Part shown: in pieces, positions 9,985-27,464 of the stretch
Layout: every line of letters starts with the position of its first letter
Position numbering within the stretch: position 1 is the first letter of the stretch
NCBI GenBank assembly: GCA_963663995.1
Contig: OY760660.1
Span: forward strand, 1,500,001-1,532,000
Source of the DNA: Erysipelotrichaceae bacterium
GTDB taxonomy: Bacteria; Bacillota_I; Bacilli_A; Erysipelotrichales; Erysipelotrichaceae
Length of the DNA: 32,000 nucleotides
Direction: 5' to 3'
Notes under the pieces: model-generated
What the model was told of the DNA's origin: nothing
Seen by the model: the letters and a program-made list of their open reading frames with translations, nothing else
The model's database searches: none
Made by a program: the position numbers and the translations under genes

Positions 9985-10446
9985 TTATAACTCTTTTGAA
10001 AAAATATAATCTGATAATCGATTCATATATTTTAGTATATCTAAATTTATACTCTGTGATAATGAATAAGCAATGATAGTTCTCTCGACTGTACGAACCT
10101 TAGCTCTCAACACATGTAAATGAGCTTTTAATTCATCATCGAAAGGGAAAATAAATTGATGCGTTAAATTCTGTTTTTTTGCGATTTCATCTTCGAAATA
10201 GTGGATATGTTCATTTAAATCAATATCAACTAAGTAGCCTGAAAGAACACTACTTATTTGATAGAGGTCTTGAACAATCATTTCCCATTCCTGTTTATCA
10301 AGCTGATGTTTGGATTGGAAGTAAATGATCTCACTCGATAATACGTCTAACTCACCAATAAGGTTTATTAAAGGATCGCTTTTGGATAAGCGTTTATTTT
10401 TGATATCAGTTTGACCAGTGTCGCCTTTTTTAGTAGTGATTGTCAT
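9985..10446 (-). CDS. PduO-type ATP:cob(I)alamin adenosyltransferase
   Basis: The N-terminus TKKGDTGQTDI...RLSKSDPLINLIGELDVLSSEI matches the TxxGDxGxT / ExxGxxDEL pattern of PduO-type adenosyltransferases. 153 aa. Confidence 0.75.
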   Translation of the reverse strand: MTITTKKGDTGQTDIKNKRLSKSDPLINLIGELDVLSSEIIYFQSKHQLDKQEWEMIVQDLYQISSVLSGYLVDIDLNEHIHYFEDEIAKKQNLTHQFIFPFDDELKAHLHVLRAKVRTVERTIIAYSLSQSINLDILKYMNRLSDYIFSKEL

Positions 10447-11413: not shown

Positions 11414-11650
11414 ATAAAAAACACATCCTTAAGATGTGTAAAAAAGACGGTTTGTGTCTTTTTATCTTAAGTCCCAGAAGATAATGGATTTGCTTTTGTT
11501 GGCAGGTCTACTGGCTGATCGTTCATCCTTTAAGCACCTTCCCGAAATTCTCTTTCAGTGGTATCTTGCTTATCGTCACGACCTACAGTTGCTGGGACAG
11601 CTTTGTTTATTACAAATTCCCTATTGAGCTCTTAGAGCACCAAAGTAAGC
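11414..11650 (-). promoter_or_regulatory. Cobalamin (B12) riboswitch with terminator/antiterminator expression platform
   Basis: The minus-strand RNA contains GGUGC...AAUAGGGAA, GCUGUCCCAGCAACUGUAGG, AGAUACCACUG, GGGAAGG and the B12 box AGCCAGUAGACCUGCC (11501-11516). It ends in the hairpin ACACAUC-UUAAG-GAUGUGU plus a U-run (11414-11439). A TATAAT -10 element lies on the minus strand at 11657-11662. Confidence 0.85.
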
Positions 11651-11702
11651 ATGTTAATTATAGAGCATATTGTGGTAAATTAATGTGAAATTTCATAAAA
11701 AC

Positions 11703-11755: not shown

Positions 11756-12397
11756 ATGAATTATTCCGTTGTAATTGCGGCTGCCGGTAAAGGGACTCGT
11801 ATGGGTCTAAAGTTCAATAAAATGTTCTTACCAATTGAAGGCGGCAAGACAATCCTAGAAAAAACTTTAAGTATCTTCTTAGATGATCCAAGATGTAAAC
11901 AAATCGTCATCGTAACAAATCCTGAGGATATTTCAAAACTGATCGACCGTTATGAAGAAGGTCGTATCGTTTATGTTATGGGGGGTAAAACCCGTCAAGA
12001 ATCTGTCTATCATGGTCTAAAAGCTGTGACTGAAGAGATCGTATTTGTTCATGATGGTGCACGTCCTTGGCTACCTTTAGCTGATATCAATAATTTATTA
12101 GAAGCGATGAAAACTGAAAAAGCAGCTATCTTAGGTGTTAAAGCTGTTCAAACGATTAAAGAAGTTCACGGGGGATATATTAAGAAAACAATCCCAAGAC
12201 AGTCTTTATATCATGCACAAACCCCACAAGCTTTCCATATTGGCTTGTTAATGGAATGTCATTTAAAAGCAGAAAAGGCTGGCTTCCATGCGACTGATGA
12301 TGCTCAACTCGTTGAAAACTTCTCGGCAATCCCGATTAAAATGGTTGAGGGATCTTATACGAATACCAAGATTACGACCATTCATGATTTAATCTAA
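11756..12397 (+). CDS. ispD: 2-C-methyl-D-erythritol 4-phosphate cytidylyltransferase (IspD/TarI family)
   Basis: N-terminus VVIAAAGKGTRMG, then VHDGARPW and TPQAF motifs. 213 aa. An IspD versus ribitol-5-P (TarI) function cannot be separated by eye. Confidence 0.75.
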   Translation: MNYSVVIAAAGKGTRMGLKFNKMFLPIEGGKTILEKTLSIFLDDPRCKQIVIVTNPEDISKLIDRYEEGRIVYVMGGKTRQESVYHGLKAVTEEIVFVHDGARPWLPLADINNLLEAMKTEKAAILGVKAVQTIKEVHGGYIKKTIPRQSLYHAQTPQAFHIGLLMECHLKAEKAGFHATDDAQLVENFSAIPIKMVEGSYTNTKITTIHDLI

Positions 12398-14024: not shown

Positions 14025-14390
14025 TTATTGAATAAACTGAATTTCATCCCCGACATTAAGATCAGGTACTTTATAAGGACTCAATAATGCGGCACCAGCC
14101 ATCAGTTCAGTTCCTTCCTCTAAACCAAAGTAAAGAGAAATATGACCTAACTCATTTAATGTTGTGCCTGCAACTTCACCAATGTCTTCTACAGCATATT
14201 CAACATCACCAAACTTGATCTTGCTGCCTTTCTTTAAGAAGTCTAATGGTATTTGCATTTCTGTTTCGTGAATGACACAAACTTCTCTAAGTCCTGGAGG
14301 AGCAGTGTCATTGAATAGAATTAGAATAGGATAATCTTCAAAGAAATAATCTGGTCCTAAATCTGTGATTTTAGATTTTATAATACTCAT
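14025..14390 (-). CDS. srlB: PTS glucitol/sorbitol-specific EIIA component
   Basis: 121 aa. The pattern ...ILILFNDTAPPGLREVCVIHE...GDVEYAVEDIGEVAGTTLNELGHISLYF... matches the SrlB/GutB family. Confidence 0.85.
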   Translation of the reverse strand: MSIIKSKITDLGPDYFFEDYPILILFNDTAPPGLREVCVIHETEMQIPLDFLKKGSKIKFGDVEYAVEDIGEVAGTTLNELGHISLYFGLEEGTELMAGAALLSPYKVPDLNVGDEIQFIQ

Positions 14391-14394
14391 ACTA

Positions 14395-15639
14395 CTATCC
14401 TAACATTTCATCCTGCATTTTTCTAAGTTTCCATACAGTTGTTGATGTATCTAATGCTACATCTTCTTCACTAATGAAGGTTCCTTTAGCGATATCGCGT
14501 TTTGCGACAACATTTCCAGAAATTAAACCGATAGGAACTAAATTCTTTTCTTTAACAACAACGTGATCTTCAATTACACCACGTACACAGAAACCACCAA
14601 TACCATCTAGTCTTTCTCCAGCTTTAATGTCTTTTTTCGCAACAGCGACTGTATCAGATACTTGACCACATAATGGAACGATTGAATGTTCACCTTTAAG
14701 GACAGCTTTTGCGATTGAAATAGGTGTTTCAAGTGAACCTAAGTGATAAGGACGATAAATGATTTGATGATCATTGTCAGTTTTATTCATATAACGGAAT
14801 GTTTCATCAGCCATTTTTGTTTTAGCTTTAACGATAACGAATACACCAGGAGCAATACCATCGACATATTCGACACAGCCATAGTTATTAAGGACGCCAC
14901 CTTCATCTTTAGTACGAAGTTGGGCAACAGTTCCTTTTAAGTCACCAGATACACCATGCATACCTGTAACATCAGCTTTATAACCAATCGCATTGGATAA
15001 TAAAGTCATTTCAGCCATTGTTTTTGTACCATCAGCAAATGCAGCTAACATATGAGCTGCCATGTGACGATCTGATGCTTCTTGAGCAACCGTATCAGGA
15101 TTTGCTTCAATACGTAATTTGTTGTTTTTTCCTTTACCAGCAACAAGTACTTCCATACCCATTGATTTAGCGAATTCATATAATTCGAAGGTTGCGGCAG
15201 GTTCATCACCATCGGATCCTGTGTAGGATAGTCCGGCAGCTTGGAATAGTTTGTAAAGTAATGGACCAACTGTAATATCGATTTCTACATTAAGTAGAAC
15301 AACGTGCTTTTTAGAGATTAAGCACTCCATGCAGATTTTAGCACCGACTTCAGGAACGCCTGTTGCGTCAACTACAACATCCACATTTTCGTTTTGGATA
15401 ACTTCTCTAAAGTTTGTAGTTGTAAGTGTATCTACCTTAATTGTTGCATTATTTGCAAACTCTTCAGCAGCTTTCTTAGCGTTATCTAAGTTAATATCAC
15501 TAACACCTGTTACCACCATGCCTGGGATTGTAGCGATTTGAGAGATCATGCCTCGACCCATTTGGCCAGCACCGATAACTCCGACGCGAATTGGATTGTT
15601 ATTAGTTTCGCGTTCTAATAATTCTTGATAAATTGTCAT
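14395..15639 (-). CDS. NAD(P)-dependent oxidoreductase, homoserine-dehydrogenase-like with a C-terminal SAF domain (COG4091-type), copy 1
   Basis: Rossmann motif VGVIGAGQMGRGM at the N-terminus. C-terminal SAF-like part: VAVAKKDIKAGERLDGIGG...VAKRDIAKGTFIS. The start is moved to the ATG at 15639 (RBS GGAAAGG), which aligns with the start of the paralogue at 27323. The 47-codon extension in the ORF track covers the promoter. Confidence 0.7.
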   Translation of the reverse strand: MTIYQELLERETNNNPIRVGVIGAGQMGRGMISQIATIPGMVVTGVSDINLDNAKKAAEEFANNATIKVDTLTTTNFREVIQNENVDVVVDATGVPEVGAKICMECLISKKHVVLLNVEIDITVGPLLYKLFQAAGLSYTGSDGDEPAATFELYEFAKSMGMEVLVAGKGKNNKLRIEANPDTVAQEASDRHMAAHMLAAFADGTKTMAEMTLLSNAIGYKADVTGMHGVSGDLKGTVAQLRTKDEGGVLNNYGCVEYVDGIAPGVFVIVKAKTKMADETFRYMNKTDNDHQIIYRPYHLGSLETPISIAKAVLKGEHSIVPLCGQVSDTVAVAKKDIKAGERLDGIGGFCVRGVIEDHVVVKEKNLVPIGLISGNVVAKRDIAKGTFISEEDVALDTSTTVWKLRKMQDEMLG

Positions 15640-15669: not shown

Positions 15670-15683
15670 TGTAAACGCCTTCA
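15670..15683. promoter_or_regulatory. cre-like (CcpA) site immediately downstream of the oxidoreductase/srlB promoter -10
   Basis: TGTAAACGCCTTCA has one mismatch to the TGWAANCGNTNWCA consensus. Confidence 0.4.
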
Positions 15684-15711
15684 TCATAGAACGATGATTT
15701 TTCGATGTCAA
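15683..15711 (-). promoter_or_regulatory. Sigma-A promoter for the oxidoreductase-srlB transcription unit
   Basis: On the minus strand: TTGACA (15711-15706), 17-nt spacer, TATGAT (15688-15683). Confidence 0.5.
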
Positions 15712-15728
15712 TTTTGTTAATGCATATG

Positions 15729-15740
15729 TAACAAATGTGA
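15729..15740. promoter_or_regulatory. 12-bp palindromic operator-like motif, site 1 (TAACAAATGTGA)
   Basis: One of four occurrences of T[A/C]ACA-AA-TGT[T/G]A in regulatory DNA in this window. It lies about 17 nt upstream of the minus-strand -35. Confidence 0.35.
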
Positions 15741-15790
15741 ATATTTGGTAATATTGTGAATAGATGAAAAGATTTATCAAGTTGTTTTTG

Positions 15791-15802
15791 TCACATTTGT
15801 GA
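15791..15802. promoter_or_regulatory. 12-bp palindromic operator-like motif, site 2 (TCACATTTGTGA; reverse complement TCACAAATGTGA)
   Basis: Perfect 5-bp arms TCACA/TGTGA. It lies 28 nt upstream of the gutM -35, in the divergent intergenic region. Confidence 0.35.
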
Positions 15803-15830
15803 AAAAAGAGTCACTTTTGGCACAATTGAA

Positions 15831-15859
15831 TTGACATTGATATAGCGCTTACATAAAAT
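15831..15859 (+). promoter_or_regulatory. Sigma-A promoter for gutM-srlA-srlE
   Basis: TTGACA (15831-15836), 17-nt spacer, TAAAAT (15854-15859). Confidence 0.55.
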
Positions 15860-15876
15860 CGAGTTAGCTAAGGCAA

Positions 15877-15890
15877 GGAAAACGCTTTCA
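15877..15890. promoter_or_regulatory. cre-like (CcpA) site in the gutM leader
   Basis: GGAAAACGCTTTCA matches TGWAANCGNTNWCA except at the first base. It lies downstream of the predicted transcription start. Confidence 0.35.
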
Positions 15891-15927
15891 CTTGCTTTGC
15901 TCTTTACAGAAAGGAAGGGTGTGTAAT

Positions 15928-16332
15928 TTGGATTATACAAAACTGATAATTGCATTTGCGGCTGTATGGTTTGTTCAAGGCTACTTAGCGATCGTCCAAA
16001 ATCGGTCCATGACGAAGACGCTAACGACTTTACAAAGAAAACATACATCAGGGCATCTTGGTGTGGGAATCAAGAAAGCTAAATGGAATGTTGGGAAAGG
16101 GTTTTACATAATCTTGGTTACAGATGAAGTTGGTGTTCTCAAAGATGTTCAACTCTTATCAGGCTTTCTCGTTACAGCTCGATTTAAACCATATGAAAAA
16201 CTTGTGGGATTAAGTGTATCAGAAGCTCGTGCAGCCATTAAGCAGAAAAATTTGCTTGCCGCATTCGATGAAGCTGTGAGTCGCATTAATGTTGAACGTA
16301 AACATCATGAGCTCGAACCTTTCAAAATTTAA
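15928..16332 (+). CDS. gutM: Glucitol operon activator GutM
   Basis: N-terminal TM helix (LIIAFAAVWFVQGYLAIVQ), then GHLGVGIKK... and LSGFLVTARFKP, matching the GutM pattern. The TTG at 15928 is preferred as the start, 9 nt after GAAAGGAAGG. The upstream part of the ORF overlaps the RBS, and the exact start is uncertain. Confidence 0.7.
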   Translation: MDYTKLIIAFAAVWFVQGYLAIVQNRSMTKTLTTLQRKHTSGHLGVGIKKAKWNVGKGFYIILVTDEVGVLKDVQLLSGFLVTARFKPYEKLVGLSVSEARAAIKQKNLLAAFDEAVSRINVERKHHELEPFKI

Positions 16333-16352
16333 ATTCTCAAAAGGAGGAAGTT

Positions 16353-16865
16353 ATGGATTTTCTAGTATCTCTAGCCGAAGGTTTCATTGGAATCTTCAAT
16401 CAAGGTGGTAGTGTATTAATGAGTTTAATCACTGGTATTCTACCAACATTAATTGTATTGCTTACTTTCGTTAATGCGATCATCGCATTAGTTGGGGAAG
16501 AAAAAGTTGAAAACTTTGCCAAAATGACAACTAAGAACATATTCTTACGTTACACATTATTCCCTGTATTGGCTGTCTTCTTCATGACAAACCCAATGTG
16601 TTATACATTTGGACGTTTCGTTGAAGAAAAACAAAAACCAGCGTTCTATGACGCAGCGGTATCATTTGTTCACCCAATCTTAGGTTTATTCCCACATGCA
16701 AATGCTGGTGAATTATTCGTTTGGACCGGTATTTCTGTTGGTATTACACAATTAGGTTTAAGTGTTGCTCCTTTAGCATTACGTTATTTCTTTGCTGGGG
16801 TTATCGTTATCTTAATCCGTGGTCTTGTTACTGAAACTCTCACAAAAATGATGTGGAAGGATTAG
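16353..16865 (+). CDS. srlA: PTS glucitol/sorbitol EIIC component (SrlA)
   Basis: 170-aa membrane protein. The N-terminus MDFLVSLAEGFIGIFNQGGS and NPMCYTFGRFVEEKQKPAFYDAAVSFVHP are typical of SrlA. A strong RBS AAAGGAGGAA is present. Confidence 0.9.
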   Translation: MDFLVSLAEGFIGIFNQGGSVLMSLITGILPTLIVLLTFVNAIIALVGEEKVENFAKMTTKNIFLRYTLFPVLAVFFMTNPMCYTFGRFVEEKQKPAFYDAAVSFVHPILGLFPHANAGELFVWTGISVGITQLGLSVAPLALRYFFAGVIVILIRGLVTETLTKMMWKD

Positions 16866-16869
16866 TCAT

Positions 16870-17910
16870 ATGGCTGACAGAGTCGTTAAAGTTGTTGCTG
16901 GTGGTAAAGGCTGGGGCGGTCCGCTTTATTTAAAAGCAGAAGGCAAACGTAGTGTTGTTGCTTCCGTTACCGGTGGTGGTATCCATCCAGTTGCTGCTAA
17001 AATCTCTGAACTTCTAGGTGTTGAAGCTGTTGACGGTTTCAATTCTAAAGTTGAACCAGATGAAATGATTGTCGCAGTTGTTGACTGTGGTGGTACAGCT
17101 CGTTGTGGTGTTTATCCAAAACTTGGTGTATTAACAGTTGATCTACATGCAATCACACCTTCTGGACCGCTTATGAAGTTCATGAAAGAAGATAACTTTG
17201 TATCTGGTGTCACAGTTGAACAAATTAGTATGTCAGAAGGAACACCTGCACCTAAAGCAGAAGCTCCTAAAGCAGAACCAAAGAAAACATCAACTGCTGA
17301 AGCTAAAGAAATAAAAGATGAAGCTAAAAAAGTCGTTGCTGAAAGAAAAGCAGAGGAGAAAAATATGGGAAATACAAGTGGTGTCCAAGCTGTAATCAGT
17401 AATCTTGGACGTGCTGTTGGTAAGGTCATTGGTGCATTCTACCAAGCTGGCCGTGAATCTATTGATATTACAATTAAAAATGTATTGCCATTTATGGCAT
17501 TTATCTCAATGATGATTGGGTTAATTCTATACACAGGTATTGGTGATGTTATTGCTAAAGCTGTTGTTCCACTCGCGTCAAGTTTAGTGGGAATGATCGT
17601 CTTATCATTTATTGCTGCAATTCCATTCCTAAGTCCAGTTTTGGGCCCAGGTGCGGTTATTGCGCAAGTTGTTGGTGTTCTAGTTGGTGTTGAAATTGGT
17701 TTAGGCCACATTGCTCCATCAATGGCACTACCTGCACTATTCGCTATTAATGCACAAGTTGGTTGTGACTTCGTTCCTGTTGGTTTAACATTGGGTGAAG
17801 CAGAACCTAAAACGGTTGAAATTGGTGTTCCAGCTGTCTTGTTCTCAAGATTAATTACTGGTCCAGTATCAGTGCTAGTAGCATACCTATTAAGTTTCGG
17901 TCTATATTAA
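16870..17910 (+). CDS. srlE: PTS glucitol/sorbitol EIIBC component (SrlE)
   Basis: N-terminal EIIB domain with VVDCGGTARCGVYPK (phospho-Cys region), an Ala/Lys/Glu-rich linker, and a C-terminal membrane domain. Confidence 0.9.
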   Translation: MADRVVKVVAGGKGWGGPLYLKAEGKRSVVASVTGGGIHPVAAKISELLGVEAVDGFNSKVEPDEMIVAVVDCGGTARCGVYPKLGVLTVDLHAITPSGPLMKFMKEDNFVSGVTVEQISMSEGTPAPKAEAPKAEPKKTSTAEAKEIKDEAKKVVAERKAEEKNMGNTSGVQAVISNLGRAVGKVIGAFYQAGRESIDITIKNVLPFMAFISMMIGLILYTGIGDVIAKAVVPLASSLVGMIVLSFIAAIPFLSPVLGPGAVIAQVVGVLVGVEIGLGHIAPSMALPALFAINAQVGCDFVPVGLTLGEAEPKTVEIGVPAVLFSRLITGPVSVLVAYLLSFGLY

Positions 17911-17931
17911 TAGATAGGAAAATAGTGATTT

Positions 17932-17960
17932 AAGAAGCAAGTTCTCTTGCTTCTTTTTTT
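17932..17960 (+). terminator. Rho-independent terminator after srlE
   Basis: Stem AAGAAGCAAG, loop TTCT, stem CTTGCTTCTT, followed by a T-run. Confidence 0.75.
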
Positions 17961-17975
17961 GTTATCATTAAAGAA

Positions 17976-18662
17976 ATGAATATTATTTATAAGGATAGTG
18001 GAGTGTTAGAAAAATACTCCATTCAAAATGATCTTGAATTATCTGCTGATTTGAAACCCAATACAGTTTTAATTCATTTTTGGCAAGTTAATGCAGTTTT
18101 ATTAGGTAAGTTGGATACAGTATTACCTCAATATCAAAGTGGAGTGGACTATCTAATTAAACAAGATTACCGAGTTGATGTTAGAAAACAAGGTGGATTA
18201 GCTATTGTTTCAGACAAAGATAATTTAAATATTAGTTTTATTTTTAAAACAAGTGATTTTCATGATTTGCATAAACCCTATCAATGTGTAGCAAATGCGA
18301 TAGCTAGTGCACTTAAAGAATTAGATTTACATGTAGATATTAAAAGTATTGATGACTCTTATTGTCCTGGTGATTATGACTTGAGTGTTAATGGATTGAA
18401 ATTTGCTGGCATAGCTCAATATCGAAACAAAGAAGTTATTGTCGTCAGTGTAAGTTTATTTGTGAGTGGCGATCAAGCTAAAAGATCTGAAACGATTAAG
18501 AATTTTTATTTGGCTGCACATGCTGATAAAAGCAGCAAACAACAATACCCTTTAATAGATATCAATAGTATGACAACATTATCTGATTTACTCGGAAAAG
18601 AAGTCAGTATTAATGTGGTAAAAGAATCACTTAGTAACGCTTTCTATAACATATGTGAATAA
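17976..18662 (+). CDS. lipL: LipL-like lipoyl/octanoyl amidotransferase (biotin/lipoate A/B ligase family)
   Basis: YRVDVRKQGGLAIVSDKDNLNISFIF, SYCPGDYDLSVNGLKFAGIAQYR, SLFVSGDQAKRSETIKNFY and YPLIDINSMTTLSDLLGKE closely parallel the B. subtilis LipL blocks as I recall them (GYRVIVRNSGGLAVV, SYCPGSYDLSI.GRKFAGISQRR). Confidence 0.65.
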   Translation: MNIIYKDSGVLEKYSIQNDLELSADLKPNTVLIHFWQVNAVLLGKLDTVLPQYQSGVDYLIKQDYRVDVRKQGGLAIVSDKDNLNISFIFKTSDFHDLHKPYQCVANAIASALKELDLHVDIKSIDDSYCPGDYDLSVNGLKFAGIAQYRNKEVIVVSVSLFVSGDQAKRSETIKNFYLAAHADKSSKQQYPLIDINSMTTLSDLLGKEVSINVVKESLSNAFYNICE

Positions 18663-18771
18663 TATAATAACAATGTACACAGCATAATATAACAATTGTC
18701 AAATTAGTTTTTGTTAATTGACATGGCAATTTCACAACCCTAAACTAATAATAGAATATGTTACGTATTAG

Positions 18772-18783
18772 TAACAAATGTTA
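18772..18783. promoter_or_regulatory. 12-bp palindromic operator-like motif, site 3 (TAACAAATGTTA), with an extra upstream half-site
   Basis: Perfect palindrome TAACA-AA-TGTTA ending 3 nt before the RBS of the SorC-family regulator gene. Together with TGTTAC at 18759-18764 it forms TGTTAC-N6-GTAACA. Confidence 0.35.
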
Positions 18784-18795
18784 AGCGGAGGATAT

Positions 18796-19740
18796 ATGGG
18801 AGAAAAAAACAATGATCGTTTACTCATAGATATTGCGAAAATGTATTATGACGAAGCGGCAACCCAAGAAGATATTGCTCAACGTTTCAATATTTCAAGA
18901 TCTTTAGTTTCTAAGCATCTTTCATTAGCTCGAGAAAAAGGATTAGTTGAAATTGTTGTTCACGATGAAAGTATTCAACCTTTTAAAGTCATCGAAGATC
19001 GTATTCAAAAGAAATATGACTTAGAAGATGTCGTTTGTGTTTCAAGTGCTGATACATCTCAAATTAAATTTAGAGTTGGACTAGCGGCAGCTAAATATTT
19101 ATCTAAAATTGTTACACCAGATATGTTTATTGGTTGTTCTGCTGGAACAACGGTTCACGAAGTGGCTGAAGCAATGAATCTAAATCTAAATATGAGTAAT
19201 CTTACTTTTGTACCTATGGTAGGTGGATTAGGAATGGCTCATACAGATATTCAAGCCAATGTTATCTGTGATATCTTTGCGAGAAAGACAGGAGGTAATG
19301 CGATTCAATTACATGCCCCTCTGGTTGTTGATGATGAGAACTCAAGAGAAGTTTTTGTTAGACAAAGATTTATTAAAGAGATCTTAGATTTAGCCCGTCA
19401 TGTCGATGTTGCAGTGGTTGGAGTTGGTGGTCAACCAGCTTACTATGAAATGACGAAAGCATATTTACATAAAATTGAACCACTTGATCCTAAAGAAGCA
19501 GAATATGTCACAGGAGATATCTTGTACAACTTCTTTGATCAAGATGGAAAAGCTGCAAATTCAGCTTGGAATAAACGTGTTATTAACTTAAGTATTGATG
19601 ACTTAATGATGATTCCTAAAGTCATTGGAGTTGCTTATGGACCAACGAAAATCGATGCCATACATGCAGCACTTAGTGGTGAGTTAATCAACGTTTTAAT
19701 TACTGACGTTAACACAGCTAAACAGCTGTTGGATAAGTAG
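18796..19740 (+). CDS. SorC/DeoR(Bsu)-family sugar-binding transcriptional regulator
   Basis: N-terminal HTH (LLIDIAKMYYDEAATQEDIAQRFNISRSLVSKHLSLAREKGLVEI) and a C-terminal SorC sugar-phosphate-binding domain (GVGGQPA...GDILYNFFDQDG...VIGVAYGPTKIDAIHAALSG). The start is the ATG at 18796, after GGAGGA. Confidence 0.8.
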   Translation: MGEKNNDRLLIDIAKMYYDEAATQEDIAQRFNISRSLVSKHLSLAREKGLVEIVVHDESIQPFKVIEDRIQKKYDLEDVVCVSSADTSQIKFRVGLAAAKYLSKIVTPDMFIGCSAGTTVHEVAEAMNLNLNMSNLTFVPMVGGLGMAHTDIQANVICDIFARKTGGNAIQLHAPLVVDDENSREVFVRQRFIKEILDLARHVDVAVVGVGGQPAYYEMTKAYLHKIEPLDPKEAEYVTGDILYNFFDQDGKAANSAWNKRVINLSIDDLMMIPKVIGVAYGPTKIDAIHAALSGELINVLITDVNTAKQLLDK

Positions 19741-19751
19741 AAAGGGTATAT

Positions 19752-21140
19752 ATGAGTTCATTAGACACAGTTATTATTGGATCAGGTCCTGGAGGTTATG
19801 TTGCAGCAATTCGTGCTAGCCAATTAGGACAAAAAGTGACTTTAATTGAGAAAGCAGACATTGGAGGAACATGCCTAAATGTAGGTTGTGTCCCATCGAA
19901 AGCACTCCTAAATATTGGTCATCATCTACATGGCTTAAAAGAATTAAGTACATTTGGGATTGATGTGAGTGATTCAAATTTTGATTTTGTAAAAGCACAA
20001 AAATTCAAAGATCAAAGAGTTGTTAAGAAGTTAAGAATGGGCATTACCGCTTTACTTCAAAAAAATAAAGTAGAAGTGATTGTTGGGACGGCTGATTTTA
20101 CCTCTGCCAACTCCATTGAGGTTACAAGTGATGGAAAGAAAACTTCACATAGTTTTAAGAATGCGATTATTGCGGTTGGGGGAAGACCAGTTGAATTAAA
20201 GTTCTTACCCAAGGATGAAAGAATCTTAGATTCTAGTTCAGCTTTAAACTTAAAAGAACTACCAAAAACGATGATTGTTATCGGAGCTGGATATATTGGC
20301 TCTGAACTTTCGGAAGCCTTCGCTATGTTAGGCACTAAAGTAACCCTAATTGAAGGAACTCCTAATATTCTTCCTGGATTCTCAACAGATTTATCAAGTC
20401 TTGTTGGAAAGAATTTTAAGAAACTTGGAATTGATGTGATTACCGATGCGATGGTTGAATCCGCTGAAGTAAAAGATAATCAAATTCATTTCAAATACAA
20501 ACATAATAATGAAATTAAATCAGTCACTGCGGATTATGCTTTAGTATCTGTTGGTAGACGTCCTAATACAGATTTGCTTTCTTTAGATAAAGCAAAAGTA
20601 GAATTAAAAGATAGAGGTTTAATAAAAGTTGATGCACAAAGCAGAACAACTAATCCTCATATTTATGCAATTGGTGATGTCGTTGAAGGTTTAGCTTTAG
20701 CACATAAAGCTTCTTATGAAGCAAAAATCGTTGCAGAAGTTATATCTGGATCAAAAAACATTGTTGATTATAAATGCATACCTGCTGTTTGTTATACAAC
20801 CCCTGAAATTTCAAGTGTTGGTTTGAGTTTGGAAGATGCTAAAGCTAAAGGCTTAAAAGCTAAGTCATCAGACTTCCCATTTCAAGCAAACTCACGATCA
20901 ATTGCGAGTGGAAATACAGAAGGTTATGTTCGTTTAATTTTTGAAGAAAAAACCGAACTATTACTAGGAGCACAAGTGGTTGGTGGACAAGCAAGTGAAA
21001 TGATTACCAACTGTGCTTTAGCCATTGAAAACAGTTTAACGCTAGAAGATATTGCCTTAACAATCTTCCCACATCCATCTTTTGCGGAAGCAATTATGGA
21101 TAATGCAGAAGTTGGTTTAGGCTATCCAATACATATGTAA
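19752..21140 (+). CDS. lpd: Dihydrolipoyl dehydrogenase (E3)
   Basis: FAD-binding motif GSGPGGYVAAIRA, redox-active disulfide GGTCLNVGCVPSKALL, and the C-terminal HPSFAE interface motif. Confidence 0.9.
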   Translation: MSSLDTVIIGSGPGGYVAAIRASQLGQKVTLIEKADIGGTCLNVGCVPSKALLNIGHHLHGLKELSTFGIDVSDSNFDFVKAQKFKDQRVVKKLRMGITALLQKNKVEVIVGTADFTSANSIEVTSDGKKTSHSFKNAIIAVGGRPVELKFLPKDERILDSSSALNLKELPKTMIVIGAGYIGSELSEAFAMLGTKVTLIEGTPNILPGFSTDLSSLVGKNFKKLGIDVITDAMVESAEVKDNQIHFKYKHNNEIKSVTADYALVSVGRRPNTDLLSLDKAKVELKDRGLIKVDAQSRTTNPHIYAIGDVVEGLALAHKASYEAKIVAEVISGSKNIVDYKCIPAVCYTTPEISSVGLSLEDAKAKGLKAKSSDFPFQANSRSIASGNTEGYVRLIFEEKTELLLGAQVVGGQASEMITNCALAIENSLTLEDIALTIFPHPSFAEAIMDNAEVGLGYPIHM

Positions 21141-21153
21141 GAAAGGAAAGATT

Positions 21154-22143
21154 ATGAGTACATCTTTAAAAAACAAAGCAAATTTAAATGACGAACAACT
21201 AAAAGAAGCGTATCGCAAAATGTGGTTAGTTCGCTACTTTGAAGAAAAAGTAGATTTCTTTTTCGCTCAAGGTAAAATCCATGGGACAACTCACCTGTGT
21301 GTAGGAGAGGAAGCAAGTTCAGTAGGTTCAGGCGCGGTACTACGTATAAGTGACTGGATTACCGCAACTCATCGCGGTCACGGACAAACAATTGCCAAGG
21401 GAACTAAAGTTAATGTCATGATGGCAGAACTCTTTGGGAAAACATCTGGAACCAATAATGGTAAAGGTGGATCGATGCATATTGCAGAACTTGAAACTGG
21501 TAACTTAGGTGCAAATGGAGTTGTCGGTGGTGGTTATGCGATTGCGGCAGGGGCTGCTTTATCTGAACAAATGAAGGGTACAGATAATGTTGCTTTATGT
21601 TATGCCGGTGATGGGTCAACCAATGAAGGTTCATTCCACGAAGCTCTAAACATGGCTTCAATTTGGAAACTTCCTGTCGTCTATTTTATTGAAAATAATA
21701 TGTATGGTATGTCAGGTCCGATTAAAGATATGGCCAATATTGAAAATTTATCAGAACGAGCAAAATCCTATGGAATACCAGGGATTACCATTGATGGAAA
21801 CAATCTGATGGAAGTTATTAATACAACCTTTGAAGCAGTTGAAAGAGCGCGCAAAGGTGAGGGGCCTACTTTAATTGAGGCGAAAACATATCGTTGGAAG
21901 GGTCATTCAAAATCGGATGCGAAAAAATATCGTACTCGTGAAGAAGAAGCTTACTGGCGTGAAGAAAAAGATCCTATCGCAAAGGCTAAAGCTGATTTTA
22001 TAAAAGCAGGGGTCTTTACGGAAGAAGAAGCAGAAACAATTAGACAAAGTGCATTTGATGAAGTTGAAGCAGCTGTAGAATTTGCAGAAGCAGGTGAAAC
22101 AGTTGGTCTAGATCAACTTTACACAAATGTATTGGCAGATTAG
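21154..22143 (+). CDS. TPP-dependent 2-oxoacid/acetoin dehydrogenase E1 alpha subunit (AcoA-like)
   Basis: THRGHGQTIAKG, GKGGSMHIA, and the TPP motif GDGSTNEGSFHEALNMASIWKLPVVYFIENN. It resembles acetoin dehydrogenase E1 alpha more closely than PdhA, by eye. Confidence 0.85.
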   Translation: MSTSLKNKANLNDEQLKEAYRKMWLVRYFEEKVDFFFAQGKIHGTTHLCVGEEASSVGSGAVLRISDWITATHRGHGQTIAKGTKVNVMMAELFGKTSGTNNGKGGSMHIAELETGNLGANGVVGGGYAIAAGAALSEQMKGTDNVALCYAGDGSTNEGSFHEALNMASIWKLPVVYFIENNMYGMSGPIKDMANIENLSERAKSYGIPGITIDGNNLMEVINTTFEAVERARKGEGPTLIEAKTYRWKGHSKSDAKKYRTREEEAYWREEKDPIAKAKADFIKAGVFTEEEAETIRQSAFDEVEAAVEFAEAGETVGLDQLYTNVLAD

Positions 22144-22155
22144 AAGGAGACAAGT

Positions 22156-23139
22156 ATGAGAGAAATTACATATTCAGAAGCCGTACGTGAAGCACTTAGC
22201 GAAGCGATGCGTGAAGATGAAACCGTCTTTTTAATGGGTGAAGATATCGGTGTTTATGGTGGTGCATTTGGGGTAACTCGAGGCATGATTGAAGAATTTG
22301 GTCCAAAACGATTAAGAATCACACCTATTTCAGAAGCAGCGATTTCAGGGGCAGCGATTGGCGCTGCAATGACTGGTATGCGTCCAATCTTCGAACTTCA
22401 ATTCTCAGATTTTATTACGATTGCGATGGACAATATTGTTAATCAAGCAGCTAAAATCCACTATATGTATGGTGGTAAGGCAAAAATTCCACTCGTTATG
22501 CGTACACCTGGTGGCTCAGGTACAGGTGCAGCTGCACAACATAGTCAAAGTCTAGAAAACTGGACAGCGCATATCCCTGGTTTGATTGTTATTCAACCAT
22601 CAACTGCATATGATGCGAAAGGTTTACTTCACTCAGCTATTAAAAATAATAATCCTGTTATGTTTTACGAACATAAACTATGTTATAGAACAAAAATGGA
22701 TGTACCTGAAGGTAAATATGAAATCCCTATTGGGGTTGCTGATATTAAAAAAGAAGGCTCAGATATTACGGTAGTTGCGACAGGAATTATGGTTCATAAA
22801 GCGCTTGAAGCAGCTGAAATCCTAGCTCAAGATGGGATTAGTATTGAAGTTGTTGATCCACGTACAATCGTTCCATTAGATAAAGAAACAATTGTAAATT
22901 CAGTTAAGAAAACACATCGTGCTGTCGTGGTAACAGAAGCTGTAAAACGTTCTGGTTTCTCAGCAGAACTCGCTTCTGTTATTGCTGAAGAAGATTCATT
23001 TGATTATTTAGATTATCCATTGGTTCGATTAGCAGGACAAGAAGTGCCTATTCCTTATCAACCTACAATGGAAAAAGCAGCAGTTCCACAAGTCAATGAT
23101 ATTGTCGAAGCCTGCAAGAAAATTATGGAGAGTGTATAA
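22156..23139 (+). CDS. 2-oxoacid/acetoin dehydrogenase E1 beta subunit
   Basis: The transketolase-like pyrimidine-binding and C-terminal domains are present: FLMGEDIGVYGGAFGVTRG, TPISEAAISGAAIGAAMTGMRP, VVDPRTIVPLD. Confidence 0.9.
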   Translation: MREITYSEAVREALSEAMREDETVFLMGEDIGVYGGAFGVTRGMIEEFGPKRLRITPISEAAISGAAIGAAMTGMRPIFELQFSDFITIAMDNIVNQAAKIHYMYGGKAKIPLVMRTPGGSGTGAAAQHSQSLENWTAHIPGLIVIQPSTAYDAKGLLHSAIKNNNPVMFYEHKLCYRTKMDVPEGKYEIPIGVADIKKEGSDITVVATGIMVHKALEAAEILAQDGISIEVVDPRTIVPLDKETIVNSVKKTHRAVVVTEAVKRSGFSAELASVIAEEDSFDYLDYPLVRLAGQEVPIPYQPTMEKAAVPQVNDIVEACKKIMESV

Positions 23140-23141
23140 CG

Positions 23142-24353
23142 ATGGCAACAGAAGTATTAATGCCTAAACTTAGCTCTACCATGGATGAAGGTAGCGTTAC
23201 AGAATGGCTTAAAAATGTTGGAGATACTGTCAAAGTGGGAGAACCTATCTTTGAAGTTATGACGGATAAAATTGCAATTGAAGTCGAAGCCTATGAAGCA
23301 GGTGTCTTACTTGGCCGTTATGTTGAAGTGGGTGAAAAAGTCCCTGTAAACACGGTTATCGCTCATATTGGTGATGCTGGTGAAAAAGTTGAAGCACCAA
23401 CAAAATCAAGCACATCGAAAGCTGTTGAAACAATTAATGAAGAGGTAGTGGAAATCGCTGCTTCTGCACCTATTGCAAAACCTACCGGAGATGTACGAGC
23501 AACCCCAGCTGCTCGTAAACTTGCAAGAGAGAATAATGTAGATATCTCGCAAGTCTATGCGAATTTAACCGATAGTCCTCGTGTTCATTTAAAACATGTA
23601 CAAGAAGCTATCAATAATCCTAAATCACAAAGTACTACAGTAGTACCAACCATTACACAAAGTGAAGTTCTTGTGCCTTGGAAAGGTGTTCGTAAGATGG
23701 TGGCTGATCAAATGGTTAAATCCAAGGCGACTGCTCCGCATGTAACACTTAATGCTGAAGTAGATACAATGAACTTAGTAGACTTACGTAAAACTTTATT
23801 AGCAAATGCAAAAGAGACAGATACTCGTATAAGCTTTACCCATCTTATTGCTTATTACACAGCTAAAGTATTAACAAAACATACAAACGTTAATGCCAGA
23901 GCACTAGAGGATGGTATTCATCAATATGCGCACGTTAATTTAGGGATAGCGACAGCGATGGATGATGGTTTAATTGTCCCGGTTATCCAAAATGCGGATA
24001 CATTAAGTATTAGAAGTCTTGCAGATATTGCAAAAGATTTAAGCAAGCGTGCCCGTACGAATGCACTTGTAAGTGCTGAATTAAATGGCGGTACTTTCAC
24101 TATTACGTCTCTAGGGACAACAGAAGTTCTAAACTTCAATCCTGTTATCAATGTTCCAGAGATTGCGATTTTGGGTGTTGGGAAAACCTATACTAAACTG
24201 GCGTTCAATGAACAAAAAGAAGTTGTAGAGCGAACATATCTTCAACTCAGTTTATCCTTCGATCATAGAGCGATTGATGGATATCCAGCTGCATTATTCC
24301 TTAGTGATTTAGTGAAGTTGTTAGAGAATCCTGAACTCGTCGTTTTATATTAA
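23142..24353 (+). CDS. Dihydrolipoamide acyltransferase (E2), with a single lipoyl domain
   Basis: Lipoyl-Lys motif EVMTDKIAIEVEA, subunit-binding domain RATPAARKLAREN, catalytic motif SFDHRAIDG. Confidence 0.9.
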   Translation: MATEVLMPKLSSTMDEGSVTEWLKNVGDTVKVGEPIFEVMTDKIAIEVEAYEAGVLLGRYVEVGEKVPVNTVIAHIGDAGEKVEAPTKSSTSKAVETINEEVVEIAASAPIAKPTGDVRATPAARKLARENNVDISQVYANLTDSPRVHLKHVQEAINNPKSQSTTVVPTITQSEVLVPWKGVRKMVADQMVKSKATAPHVTLNAEVDTMNLVDLRKTLLANAKETDTRISFTHLIAYYTAKVLTKHTNVNARALEDGIHQYAHVNLGIATAMDDGLIVPVIQNADTLSIRSLADIAKDLSKRARTNALVSAELNGGTFTITSLGTTEVLNFNPVINVPEIAILGVGKTYTKLAFNEQKEVVERTYLQLSLSFDHRAIDGYPAALFLSDLVKLLENPELVVLY

Positions 24354-24366
24354 ATTATTTATTAGA

Positions 24367-24437
24367 AAGCTGTAACAAAAATTGGGGACATCAAACATTA
24401 AGTGTTGATAAAACAAAATTGTTACAGCTTATTTTTA
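24367..24437 (+). terminator. Probable terminator after the E2 gene (long-range stem with a large loop)
   Basis: AAGCTGTAACAA (24367-24378) pairs with TTGTTACAGCTT (24419-24430) and is followed by a T-rich run. The loop is unusually long (~40 nt). Confidence 0.45.
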
Positions 24438-24506
24438 TATTGATAATAATTTGGATTTGAAACATTTTTTGTATACTTTGTTTAACCCTTAATCGATGGA
24501 GAGAAT

Positions 24507-25184
24507 ATGTCTTACAAATATATCAATTTCAAATCATTAATTCCATATCTTGAAGGACTCAAACTACAAGCTATAGCTTTTGATAAAGTATTAAATCAAG
24601 AAGCGAAAGGCATATTGTTGATTCTTGAACATGAAGCTGTTTATACCATTGGTAAAGATGGTGGTTGGAATAATTTGCTTGAATCAAAAGATGTTTTGAA
24701 TGAAGAAGGAATTGATGTAGTGGAAGTGAATCGTGGAGGTAATATTACTTTTCATGGACCTGGACAGATTGTTTTATATCCCATCTTAGATTTGAATTAT
24801 TTGGGGAAAGATATTCATTTATTTATTGACAATTTAGAGAAATCGATTATTGAGACACTAAAAAATTTTGATATTGAAGCTACTCAAAAACCAAAGTATC
24901 GAGGGGTGTGGGTAGACGATCAAAAAATAGCAGCGGTAGGTGTTCATATATCAAAATGGATTAGCTCACATGGCATTGCTTTTAATATTAATGTGGATAA
25001 GCGTAATTTTGATCGAATAACTCCTTGTGGCTTAAAGGATTTTAGAGTTGTTTCATTGGATGAGTATAAAGGAAGACAATCGATTGAAAACATCAAAGAA
25101 TTGTTAATTCAAAGTTTTGAATCAATATTTAAACTAAAGTTTGAAGAAACAAGTGAAGATTACTTAAGTGAGGAAAATAGATGA
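24507..25184 (+). CDS. lipB: Octanoyltransferase LipB
   Basis: [38 protein letters not shown] (catalytic Lys) and TPCGL (catalytic Cys). It overlaps the lipA start by 4 nt. Confidence 0.85.
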
Positions 25185-26050
25185 GCACTGAAATAAAAAG
25201 ACCGGATTGGTTAAGAAAGAAAATATCTCATGTCGAGAATATAGATGAAACTTTTAATATCCTAAAACGTTTATCACTTAATACAGTTTGTGATAGTGCC
25301 ATGTGTCCTAATATTGGTGAATGCTACGGCAATAAGACAGCCACTTTTATGATATTAGGGAATGTTTGTACGCGTGTTTGTCGTTTTTGTGCAGTCCCTA
25401 AAGGGCGAACGGAAATGGTGGATGTTGATGAACCCAGACATATTGGAGAAGCATGTAAAGAATTAGCTTTGAAACATGTTGTCGTAACATCGGTAACACG
25501 TGATGATTTAAAAGGTGGGGGAGCTCAACATTTTGCGAATGTTATAAACGAAATTCGGAAAAGTAATCCAAAAACGACGATTGAAGTATTAATTCCAGAT
25601 TTAAAAGGTAACTGGGATGCTTTAAAAATAATCGTAGATGCAAAACCAGATATCATTAATCACAATACTGAAACCGTTAAAAGTCTCTATTCAGTGGTTA
25701 GACCTGTCGCTATTTACGATCGATCACTAGAACTTCTAAAAACAGTGAAGGAAATGGATCCTAATATCTATACTAAATCAGGCATAATGGTTGGACTTGG
25801 ATAAACAGATCCAGAAGTATTTACTTTAATGGATGATTTAAGAAAGAATAACGTTGATATTATGACGATTGGCCAATATCTACAACCAACATCTAAACAC
25901 TTGGATGTAAAAGAATATGTACATCCAGATAAGTTTGAATATTATAAAAATATAGCAGAAGAAAAAGGTTTCTTATATGTTGCCTCTGGTCCATTTGTGA
26001 GAAGTTCATATAATGCGGCGATTGGAATTGATAAGGTAAGAGCTTTATAA
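25181..26050 (+). pseudogene. lipA: Lipoyl synthase LipA interrupted by a single in-frame TAA (25802-25804)
   Basis: ORFs 25181-25804 and 25829-26050 are in the same frame. The read-through translation is ...[37 protein letters not shown]...[10 protein letters not shown]. The stop replaces the Glu of the conserved GLGET motif (GAA to TAA). Both Cys motifs ([12 protein letters not shown] and CTRVCRFC) lie in the N-terminal part, and the RSSY motif lies in the C-terminal part. Confidence 0.8.
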
Positions 26051-26053
26051 AAG

Positions 26054-26088
26054 AAACGGTAAGCTACCTATAACTTACCGTTTTTATT
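26054..26088. terminator. Bidirectional terminator between lipA and the convergent oxidoreductase gene
   Basis: Stem AAACGGTAAG (26054-26063), 10-nt loop, stem CTTACCGTTT (26074-26083), with an A-run on one side and a T-run on the other. Confidence 0.65.
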
Positions 26089-27323
26089 TAATATTTCTGA
26101 TCTTGAATCATCCTTAATGTATATATAGTACTATCTGTATCAAAAATAAGGTCATCATAAGTAATAAATGTTCCTTTTTTAATACCTTTTTTAACTCGTA
26201 CATTTTCGGATAATAAACCTATTGGAACATAATTGTTTTCTAAGGCTTCACTATGCTTCGTTATAACACCTCGAAAGCAATAACCACCGATATAATCTAA
26301 TGTTTCATTTTCCACTAAATCTTTTTTAGCGACTGCGACAGTATCTGAAAGCTGATTAAAATAAGGGGCAATTGCAGCTTCTTGTTTTAAGTAAGCTTTA
26401 GCGATTGTAAGAGGTGTTTCAAGTGAGCCTAAATGATAGGGACGATAGAGGATTTGATGATCTTCAAAGTCTTGCATCATATAATGGAGTTCTTCGCTGA
26501 CGTAAGGATTTTGTCCTTTGACAATGACGAAGACACCTGGGGCAATCCCATCAACATACTCAATGACTCCATATTGGCTTAAAACGCCATTGTCTGTTCG
26601 TAATTTTTGAACGGTTTCTTTTAAATTGGCTTTAACACCATGCATGCCAACTCGATCTGGAATAAAACCAATTGAATTAGAGAGTAAGGTCATTTCAGCC
26701 ATTGTTTTTGTACCGTCGGCAAAAGATGCTAACATATGTGCGCTCATTTTTCTTCTTTGTGCTTCTTCTAAAACAGTATCAGGATTGGCTTCTAAACGTA
26801 TTTTGTTGTTTTTACCTTTACCAGCCACTAAGACTTCTAAACCACATGCTTTCGCAAATTCATACAATTCGACAATTGCGGCAGGTTCATCACCATCAGA
26901 TCCCGTATAAACAAGCCCAGCATTTTTAAACTCATGATAGAAGTAAGTGCCGACAGTGATATCCATTTCAACATTTAATAAAACAATCGACTTATTGGCT
27001 TTTAAACATTCCAAACAGATATTTGCGCCAGTCTCTGGATGTCCAGTCGCATCTACGACAATATCAACATCGTTATGTTGAATTAATTCATGATAGTTTG
27101 ATGTGATAAAAAGATCGTGTTCTTGATTTGAATAGTTTTGGTAAATTTCTTTTGCCTTCTCAGCTTTTGAAATTGTTCGATTACAGATAGCGGATACAAT
27201 CATGCCATTTAAGGTAGCGATTTGTGCGACTAAACCTAAGCCCATTTGGCCAACGCCAACGATACCTACTTTAATGGGTGTATTGTTTTTTTCTAATTTT
27301 AATAAATCTTGATAGATGCTCAT
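26088..27323 (-). CDS. NAD(P)-dependent oxidoreductase, homoserine-dehydrogenase-like with a C-terminal SAF domain (COG4091-type), copy 2
   Basis: 411 aa, collinear with the protein at 14395-15639. Identity is roughly 55-65% by eye, and very high in the central YTGSDGDEPAA...VLVAGKGKNNK...FADGTKTMAEMTLLSN block. Confidence 0.7.
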   Translation of the reverse strand: MSIYQDLLKLEKNNTPIKVGIVGVGQMGLGLVAQIATLNGMIVSAICNRTISKAEKAKEIYQNYSNQEHDLFITSNYHELIQHNDVDIVVDATGHPETGANICLECLKANKSIVLLNVEMDITVGTYFYHEFKNAGLVYTGSDGDEPAAIVELYEFAKACGLEVLVAGKGKNNKIRLEANPDTVLEEAQRRKMSAHMLASFADGTKTMAEMTLLSNSIGFIPDRVGMHGVKANLKETVQKLRTDNGVLSQYGVIEYVDGIAPGVFVIVKGQNPYVSEELHYMMQDFEDHQILYRPYHLGSLETPLTIAKAYLKQEAAIAPYFNQLSDTVAVAKKDLVENETLDYIGGYCFRGVITKHSEALENNYVPIGLLSENVRVKKGIKKGTFITYDDLIFDTDSTIYTLRMIQDQKY

Positions 27324-27336
27324 TTTCCCTCACAAT

Positions 27337-27348
27337 TCACAAATGTGA
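27337..27348. promoter_or_regulatory. 12-bp palindromic operator-like motif, site 4 (TCACAAATGTGA), with an adjacent extra TCACA half-site
   Basis: Perfect palindrome 14 nt upstream of the start codon of oxidoreductase copy 2. A further TCACA at 27330-27334 abuts the RBS. Confidence 0.35.
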
Positions 27349-27435
27349 CAATACTATTTTATTTGTCACTAATGAAAAAGCAAGTAAATGTTTTAATAGG
27401 AATAGAAATGACAGCTTAAAACAGGGTATTTCCTA

Positions 27436-27464
27436 TTGTTTATGAAAAGTAAGAGTGTTATAAT
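27436..27464 (+). promoter_or_regulatory. Sigma-A promoter of the rpsF-ssb-rpsR operon
   Basis: TTGTTT (27436-27441), 17-nt spacer, TATAAT (27459-27464), preceded by a TG (extended -10). Confidence 0.5.

Follow-up and report, generated by a model that had tools for sequence, protein, structure and literature searches.

A candidate DeoR-type operator upstream of a gut-type phosphotransferase system, DXR-II-family oxidoreductases and an acetoin-dehydrogenase-like complex

Introduction

The closest known counterpart of the regulatory system considered here is the DeoR repressor of Bacillus subtilis, a tetramer that binds the dra-nupC-pdp operator (ATTGAACAAAATTTCAATTACCAATTTACATATGTTCAA) with one dimer on each half-operator (PMC11229326). 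Residues R34 and R39 of DeoR contact the bases, and repression is exerted from a palindrome at −60 to −43 together with a second half-operator that reaches the −35 region (PMC11229326). CggR also binds tandem half-operators as a tetramer and is released from them by a sugar phosphate (PMC11229326, PMC2943609). Here we analyze a 12-bp palindrome, TNACAWWTGTNA, in a stretch of 32,000 nucleotides from an uncultured Erysipelotrichaceae bacterium (assembly GCA_963663995.1, contig OY760660.1, positions 1,500,001 to 1,532,000; hereafter the window, numbered from its first letter). The palindrome lies in the regulatory regions of a gene cluster that encodes a gut-type phosphotransferase system (PTS) with the associated protein GutM, two oxidoreductases of the DXR-II/DRL family (DRL1 and DRL2), a SorC-family regulator, and an E1-E2-E3 complex resembling acetoin or pyruvate dehydrogenases. 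Judging from its sequence and placement, it is very likely the operator of the SorC/DeoR-type regulator encoded at 18796-19740, which would function mainly as an autoregulated repressor.

The assignment puts forward a concrete set of operator, regulator, and regulon for a hitherto unstudied SorC-family repressor. The shared control would tie together a gut-type PTS, DXR-II, and an acetoin-dehydrogenase-like complex, a connection not noted in the literature that we searched.

A palindrome confined to three regulatory regions

A preliminary description of this DNA had picked out four near-identical 12-mers, and these are present and read as described there (sites 1 to 4 below). Three of the four have perfect 5-bp arms, sites 1 and 2 are separated by 62 bp from center to center, sites 3 and 4 lie directly upstream of the ribosome-binding sites (RBS) of the regulator gene and DRL2, and the additional half-sites TGTTAC at 18759 and TCACA at 27330 are found as well. 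The motif behind these four sites is real, but it needed a broader definition: related loci show a central W-W and leave positions 2 and 11 free, so that the generalized motif is the true 12-bp palindrome TNACAWWTGTNA. It has two added exact matches, both upstream of the regulator promoter, which brings the window to six strong sites in addition to four auxiliary degenerate ones described below. The strong sites, with distances to predicted promoters, are:

15729-15740 (plus strand), site 1: TAACAAATGTGA, centered about −58 from the predicted DRL1 promoter start
15791-15802, site 2: TCACATTTGTGA, which is TCACAAATGTGA read on the minus strand, centered about −69 from the predicted gutM promoter start
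18647-18658, added site: TAACATATGTGA, about −100 from the regulator promoter
18690-18701, added site: TAACAATTGTCA, centered about −57 from the regulator promoter start
18772-18783, site 3: TAACAAATGTTA, in the regulator leader at about +19 to +30, between the predicted transcription start and the RBS and directly before the latter
27337-27348, site 4: TCACAAATGTGA, directly upstream of the DRL2 RBS

All six exact matches fall in three regulatory regions of one cluster, with none elsewhere in the window. The pattern TMACAAATGTKA has 4 matches in the 32-kb window versus 0.09 expected, a count reached by none of 100 dinucleotide-preserving shuffles, and the 6 exact matches to TNACAWWTGTNA compare with 0.54 expected and were likewise reached in 0 of 100 shuffles (Poisson P ~2e-5). 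Five of the six are in non-coding DNA, which makes up 6.9% of the window (binomial P ~9e-6); the sixth, at 18647-18658, overlaps the final codons of a lipL/M-like open reading frame (ORF). Variants with one mismatch show no such intergenic bias, as only 1 of the 8 in the window is non-coding, and the signal is therefore specific to the consensus. Since the pattern was fixed only once the sites were known, these P values err on the optimistic side. Conservation in other genomes provides the independent test, and the motif passes it, as described next.

Conservation in related genomes

One genome per species was searched with aligned regulator homologues; this yielded 80 loci (numbered with the prefix L), which were annotated against the window proteins. 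At least 65 of the 80 carry the cluster (Erysipelotrichaceae, Enterococcus, Vagococcus, and many Bacillaceae), and the shared gene set comprises a gut-type PTS, GutM, a DRL protein, a SorC-type regulator, and usually acetoin-dehydrogenase-like E1-E2-E3. Identity of the regulator to the window protein is 57-93% in Erysipelotrichaceae, 46-54% in Enterococcus and Vagococcus, and 41-46% in Bacillaceae, the closest locus being L001 (OY781039.1) at 93%.

The earlier proposal had been made dependent on motif frequency and on conservation in relatives, and it comes through on both counts, for frequency within the DNA covered here. In the 26 closest orthologous loci, 213 kb of cluster sequence contain 51 sites and 227 kb of flanks contain 2, which agrees with the absence of exact matches outside the regulatory regions of the cluster in the window. 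Even in relatives where identity of the regulator drops to 41-60%, the motif recurs at corresponding positions. Across 65 loci, 96 sites lie no more than 350 bp upstream of a cluster gene, distributed over DRL (43), the regulator (21), E1alpha (16), gutM (10), and a second SorC paralogue (5).

In Erysipelotrichaceae, the divergent region between DRL1 and gutM keeps two sites 60-63 bp apart in surroundings that have diverged (regulator 57-60% identical), and 1 to 3 sites are found upstream of the regulator gene. Site 1 is kept in L001, L006, L008-L010, and L026; the site at 18647 in L001 and L006-L010; and the site between the regulator promoter and its RBS in L001-L003, L005, and L026. Enterococcus and Vagococcus carry the motif in the gutM/DRL divergent region, and in Bacillaceae it precedes each separate unit, including E1alpha in 16 loci, where the site is centered ~42 bp before the start codon. 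Orthologues of DRL2 (74-80% identical; L084, L081, and L082) lie at the same position as in the window and keep the upstream site. Finally, L016, L021, and L024 have the motif in the leader of regulator-E1-E2-E3 operons with no PTS or gutM nearby.

Because the motif is kept upstream of both the DRL2 orthologues and the separate E1alpha genes, the PTS, the two oxidoreductases, and the dehydrogenase complex appear to be tied together, which supports the single regulon that the preliminary description had envisaged for the PTS, both oxidoreductases, and the regulator/E3-E1-E2 operon.

A second SorC-family paralogue (31-37% identical) is encoded in many Bacillaceae clusters (L027-L079; for example L066, 18052-19107), and a motif copy often precedes it by ~47 bp. 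In these clusters, the operator set may be shared by the two related regulators or split between them.

An exact motif match also occurs inside gutIIC in 13 loci, at codons for L-T-F-V-N (including L001 at 7659, L006 at 7652, L008 at 4801, L009 at 7654, and L010 at 7654). In the window, gutIIC (16458-16481) uses different codons for this peptide (CTTACTTTCGTTAAT), and the motif is absent there. This recurrence is strikingly frequent, but it is probably a coding coincidence rather than an operator.

Predicted promoters, tandem sites, and cre-like sites

Scans for sigma-70-type consensus sequences predicted the following promoters around the strong sites:

15683-15711 (minus strand): DRL1-gutIIA operon, TTGACA, 17 nt, TATGAT; 11 of 12 consensus positions matched
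15831-15859 (plus strand): gutM-gutIIC-gutIIBC(-lipL/M) operon, TTGACA, 17 nt, TAAAAT; 11 of 12 matched
18718-18746 (plus strand): regulator-E3-E1alpha-E1beta-E2 operon, TTGACA, 17 nt, TAAACT

Strong sites in the window are accompanied by a degenerate partner with 2 mismatches at a distance of 20-21 bp, and the partner tends to sit on or next to a predicted promoter element. Four such auxiliary sites were tabulated:

15708-15719: TCAATTTTGTTA, 2 mismatches, 21 bp from site 1, over the DRL1 −35 box; also called as an inverted repeat
15811-15822: TCACTTTTGGCA, 2 mismatches, 20 bp from site 2 and immediately upstream of the −35 box of gutM
18752-18763: TAGAATATGTTA, 20 bp from the site at 18772, over the predicted regulator transcription start; contains the TGTTAC half-site
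27357-27368: TTTTATTTGTCA, 20 bp from site 4, over the likely DRL2 −10 box (TAAAAT, minus strand)

The same architecture is found across the collected loci. Among 177 non-identical sites from all of them, a second site with at most 2 mismatches lies at an offset of 19 in 24% of site flanks versus ~0.5% at other offsets, and the offset profile has a further peak at 39. A longer spacing of 62 bp occurs twice in the window, between 15729 and 15791 and between 18690 and 18752.

Just downstream of the two divergent promoters are sequences that resemble catabolite-responsive elements (cre), the binding sites of CcpA:

15670-15683: cre-like site TGTAAACGCCTTCA, adjoining the −10 box and start of the DRL1 promoter; kept in L001
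15877-15890: cre-like site GGAAAACGCTTTCA in the gutM leader; all lineages examined have a AAGCGCTTTCA-type sequence in the gutM leader

Their presence suggests that catabolite repression may be superimposed on the local repressor.

The regulator as the candidate binding protein

The protein proposed to bind the palindrome is encoded within the cluster:

18796-19740 (plus strand): SorC-family, B. subtilis DeoR-like regulator with a helix-turn-helix (HTH) motif and a PF04198 sugar-binding domain

Its Pfam Sugar-bind match (PF04198) covers residues 66-312 with 206.8 bits, HTH-type matches cover residues 13-54, and the best match among solved structures is B. subtilis DeoR (8r7y, E 2e-34), followed by Listeria Lmo0547 (4r9n). 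The NCBIfam DeoR model NF053881 scores it at 212.4 bits, below the equivalog cut-off of 420. This score, combined with a different recognition helix (SRSLVSK instead of SRPTVSR) and different neighboring genes, indicates that the regulator is not DeoR itself; it is best regarded as a distinct, uncharacterized member of the DeoR subfamily that probably works like DeoR.

The adjacent regulator, already favored in the preliminary description, is the best candidate for several reasons: it strictly co-occurs with the motif, its own leader holds sites in an autoregulatory position, the motif persists in L016, L021, and L024 without gutM, and the palindrome is similar to the DeoR operator. The tandem architecture, with copies 19-21 bp apart, also fits a SorC-family tetramer. 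The recognition helix, tried as a discriminator between motif-positive and motif-negative loci, proved uninformative, as ISRSLVSK is almost invariant among the homologues and the "negative" loci carry degenerate motifs such as GAACAATTGTTC.

Proposed mode of action and alternatives

We infer that a dimer of dimers is the binding form of the regulator: one dimer would occupy a strong palindrome and the other the weaker copy at a distance of 19-21 bp, which lies on the same helical face. These weaker copies cover the −35 box of DRL1, the transcription start and leader of the regulator, and the −10 box of DRL2, and because of this overlap with predicted promoter elements, binding should block transcription. 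The 62-bp spacings may allow cooperation between bound tetramers, a phosphorylated product or intermediate of the pathway would release the repressor, and CcpA would exert separate control from the cre-like sites of the two divergent leaders. The proposed regulon would consist of four transcription units: DRL1-gutIIA; gutM-gutIIC-gutIIBC(-lipL/M); the autoregulated regulator-E3-E1alpha-E1beta-E2 operon; and DRL2.

Several observations weigh against this assignment. The outer TT/AA of DeoR half-sites is not conserved around the palindrome, and a search for conserved flanks of this kind found almost no information at the flanking positions. The regulator falls below the DeoR-model cut-off, and its recognition helix is also kept in homologues without exact motif matches, so that helix and motif give no sharp discrimination. 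In many Bacillaceae loci the second SorC paralogue could bind some of the sites. The promoters rest on consensus prediction. Lastly, the position of sites 1, 2, and 18690, whose centers lie upstream of the −35 boxes at about −57 to −69, would also suit an activator.

This last point leads to the alternative that survives best, in which the same regulator is an activator or has a dual role at the divergent DRL1 and gutM promoters, while still repressing its own promoter and DRL2. The placement of the strong sites upstream of the −35 boxes of DRL1, gutM, and the regulator would accommodate it, and in Enterococcus too, a site lies ~25-30 bp upstream of the gutM −35 box. SorC of Klebsiella pneumoniae has been described as both an activator and a repressor, which adds to this side. 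However, the DRL1 and gutM promoters match the consensus at 11 of 12 positions and should need no activator, and the layout from which B. subtilis DeoR represses (−60 to −43 plus the −35 region) is the arrangement found here, with the auxiliary site at 15708 over the −35 box. DeoR, CggR, and LsrR, all SorC-family structure matches of the regulator, are repressors. Activation is unlikely, though it deserves more weight than the remaining alternatives.

Repression by the adjacent regulator also has to be set against binding by some other protein, in which case the SorC-family protein would have its sites elsewhere. Such a protein might be GutM, a second SorC paralogue from another locus, or a CRP/FNR-, Rex-, or CcpA-type global regulator. 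TGTGA and TCACA half-sites recall the boxes of CRP/FNR- and Rex-type proteins, gutM is present in nearly all clusters, and the second SorC paralogue is there in many Bacillaceae loci. The motif is nevertheless confined to the cluster, unlike the scattered sites of a global regulator, and it matches the known DeoR operator design. GutM fits poorly with the motif-bearing loci that have no gutM nearby, and a second paralogue fits poorly with Erysipelotrichaceae and Enterococcus, where the 20 kb examined at each locus contain a single SorC-family gene. The half-sites themselves are arranged differently from the global boxes: the CRP/FNR box is TGTGA-N6-TCACA and the Rex box TTGTGAA-N4-TTCACAA, whereas the arms here read TCACA-N2-TGTGA, in the opposite order and with a different spacing. 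Nor is the palindrome a cre (TGWAANCGNTNWCA, with a central CG), as its WW center lacks the CG and separate cre-like sites exist. We consider a different binding protein improbable.

An RNA element was rejected, since Rfam has no match in the three regulatory regions and no stable hairpin can form from 5-bp arms around a 2-nt spacer. Chance, which an A/T-rich motif in a window of 35% G+C and a pattern defined post hoc might invite, has a negligible probability given the shuffled controls and the non-coding placement of five of six sites, and is refuted by conservation of position and spacing across three bacterial families.

Gene content of the cluster and its surroundings

The genes of the cluster are arranged as follows:

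14025-14390 (minus strand): gut-type PTS EIIA
14395-15639 (minus strand): DRL1, DXR-II/DRL-family oxidoreductase with PF21135 and an SAF domain
15919-16332 (plus strand): gutM, PF06923
16353-16865 (plus strand): gut-type EIIC
16870-17910 (plus strand): gut-type EIIBC
17976-18662 (plus strand): LipL/LipM-like octanoyl/lipoyl transferase
19752-21140 (plus strand): E3 of the acetoin/pyruvate-dehydrogenase-like complex
21154-22143 (plus strand): E1alpha of the same complex
22156-23139 (plus strand): E1beta
23142-24353 (plus strand): E2
24507-25184: LipB-like gene
26088-27323 (minus strand): DRL2, second DXR-II/DRL-family oxidoreductase, 60% identical to DRL1

DRL1 starts at the ATG at 15639 and not at the TTG at 15780, in alignment with the start of DRL2. 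Gaps of 2-13 bp suggest that the regulator is co-transcribed with E3-E1alpha-E1beta-E2. After E2, a simple scan called no terminator, including at a long inverted repeat at 24368-24431 just behind the gene (GCTGTAACAAAAATT ... AAAATTGTTACAGC, then TTATTTTT), whose arms resemble operator half-sites. lipA is split into two pieces (25181-25804, 207 aa, and 25829-26050, 73 aa) and is either a pseudogene or the product of a sequencing or assembly error.

Beyond DRL2 follow rpsF and ssb. In L001 the segment corresponding to ~24354-27440 is absent, with the LipB-like gene, split lipA, DRL2, and its promoter, and E2 is followed directly by rpsF. DRL2 is found at the same spot in L081, L082, and L084, the first of which has neither lipB nor lipA. 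On the other side of the cluster, a DDE transposase gene (PF13751/PF01609; 12495-13982) separates ispD from gutIIA; the two are adjacent in L001, which points to a recent insertion of an insertion sequence.

Further upstream, the single Rfam match in the window is a cobalamin riboswitch (RF00174, 102 bits, 11484-11659, minus strand). It precedes a row of minus-strand genes that includes a PduO-type cobalamin adenosyltransferase (9985-10446), the large subunit of a ribonucleotide reductase (7398-9908), and two ORFs without a Pfam assignment, of which one gave no hit when scanned.

DXR-II-family enzymes and a possible substrate

The cluster had been taken for a sorbitol system with two SAF-domain oxidoreductases. 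The SAF domain is present, but both proteins belong to the DXR-II (DRL) family by their sequences, each matching PF21135 (DRL_cat) with 187 bits. DRL1 aligns with Brucella abortus DXR-II (3upl/3upy) at E 9e-84. Four residues, G121, T229, H250, and V351 in Brucella numbering, are conserved in DXR-II and different in DLO1/DLO2 (PMC3847144). DRL1 keeps all four in the alignment to 3upy, and DRL2 has Leu at position 351, unlike the Val of DXR-II. A reductoisomerase activity interconverting 1-deoxy-D-xylulose 5-phosphate (DXP) and MEP, the 4-phosphate of 2-C-methyl-D-erythritol, is putative for both.

Sorbitol, in turn, is probably the wrong substrate. A domain scan of 14 of the 16 ORFs between 14025 and 27323 found no sorbitol-6-phosphate 2-dehydrogenase of the short-chain dehydrogenase/reductase type (SrlD/GutF) and no GutR/SrlR; the other two ORFs, gutIIC and gutIIBC, are PTS components by their domain matches, and 60 or more related loci have the same gene content.

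We tentatively propose that the regulon may instead serve an undescribed catabolic route for 2-C-methyl-D-erythritol (ME), a possibility in which the chemistry of each step is inferred. The gut-type PTS would import ME and phosphorylate it to MEP; the DXR-II enzymes would run the DXR reaction backwards, from MEP to DXP; the E1-E2-E3 complex would cleave DXP, an alpha-hydroxy methyl ketone, to acetyl-CoA and glyceraldehyde 3-phosphate; and MEP or DXP would be the inducer that releases the DeoR-like repressor. The route is supported by the DXR-II residues, by the linkage of PTS, DXR-II, and E1-E2-E3 in three bacterial families, and by the combination of cre-like sites and a repressor that is typical of catabolic operons. 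The setting of the DRL gene, alongside genes for a PTS and a dehydrogenase complex and under putative control by a repressor and cre-like sites, also suggests that the enzyme is catabolic rather than biosynthetic. Enterococci, which carry the cluster, make isoprenoids through mevalonate (MVA). Finegoldia magna has DXR-II activity and no other MEP or MVA enzymes (PMC3847144), and the sorbitol PTS of Salmonella is described as transporting ME (Testa et al. 2004, J Bacteriol 186:473, as cited in PMC3994034).

The MEP cytidylyltransferase gene ispD is next to the cluster in the window (11756-12397), in L001 (4532-5173), in L026 (44-727), and in L083 (3916-4557), and this adjacency connects the cluster further with MEP metabolism. 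DXR-II is also listed in Listeria (PMC3847144), and together with the regulator homologue Lmo0547 (4r9n), this raises the possibility that Listeria has the cluster as well. In the papers that could be searched, nothing relevant to the cluster or to methylerythritol catabolism turned up. If true, the ME route would explain DXR-II in bacteria without the MEP pathway. The shared control turns an old puzzle, the scattered occurrence of DXR-II in organisms of which some lack that pathway, into a testable pathway hypothesis.

Comparison with known systems

The cluster shares with the classical gut/srl operon its gut-family EIIA, EIIC, and EIIBC (PF03829, PF03608, and PF03612/PF07663) and GutM (PF06923). 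Unlike that operon, it has DXR-II enzymes, a SorC-family regulator, and an E1-E2-E3 complex in place of the sorbitol-6-phosphate dehydrogenase and GutR/SrlR.

The likeness to B. subtilis DeoR extends from protein to operator. Both regulators combine an HTH with a PF04198 domain, and the base-contacting Arg34 of DeoR is kept as R35 here, with K40 at the position of R39. The DeoR half-operators can be read as 7-2-7 inverted repeats (TTGAACA-AA-ATTTCAA and ATTTACA-TA-TGTTCAA), and the palindrome corresponds to the central 12 bp of this design; the right half, TTACATATGTTC, matches it at 11 of 12 positions, with a common core of (G/T)NACA-WW-TGTN(C/A), and enterococcal sites even have the DeoR-like readings GAACATATGTTA or GAACATATGTTC. 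In its sequence architecture the system fits the DeoR arrangement, with two putative half-operators, one strong and one degenerate, about two helical turns apart, as would suit a tetramer, and at the DRL1 promoter a strong palindrome near −60 is joined by a weaker half-operator reaching the −35 region. A locus expected to be a genuine deoR locus, L044 (B. inaquosorum), turned out by annotation to be another PTS-DRL cluster.

In other respects the two systems differ. The half-operator spacing is 19-21 bp here and 23 bp in DeoR, the recognition helices are SRSLVSK and SRPTVSR, and the system in the window has four promoters, six strong sites, and apparent autoregulation from the regulator's own leader. 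Its proposed targets are genes for a PTS, for DXR-II enzymes, and for a 2-oxoacid/acetoin-dehydrogenase-like complex, instead of the nucleoside catabolism genes deoC, nupC, and pdp.

CggR, LsrR, and SorC belong to the same effector-binding domain family, and the CggR operator, like the proposed one at site 3, lies in the leader of an operon that begins with the regulator gene. CggR nevertheless has a winged-helix domain and a direct-repeat operator of the CGGGACN6TGTC type, which has no sequence resemblance to the palindrome. As a regulatory element alone, the palindrome with its putative regulator is an ordinary local repressor-operator system of the DeoR type, and its interest comes mainly from the set of genes that it ties together.

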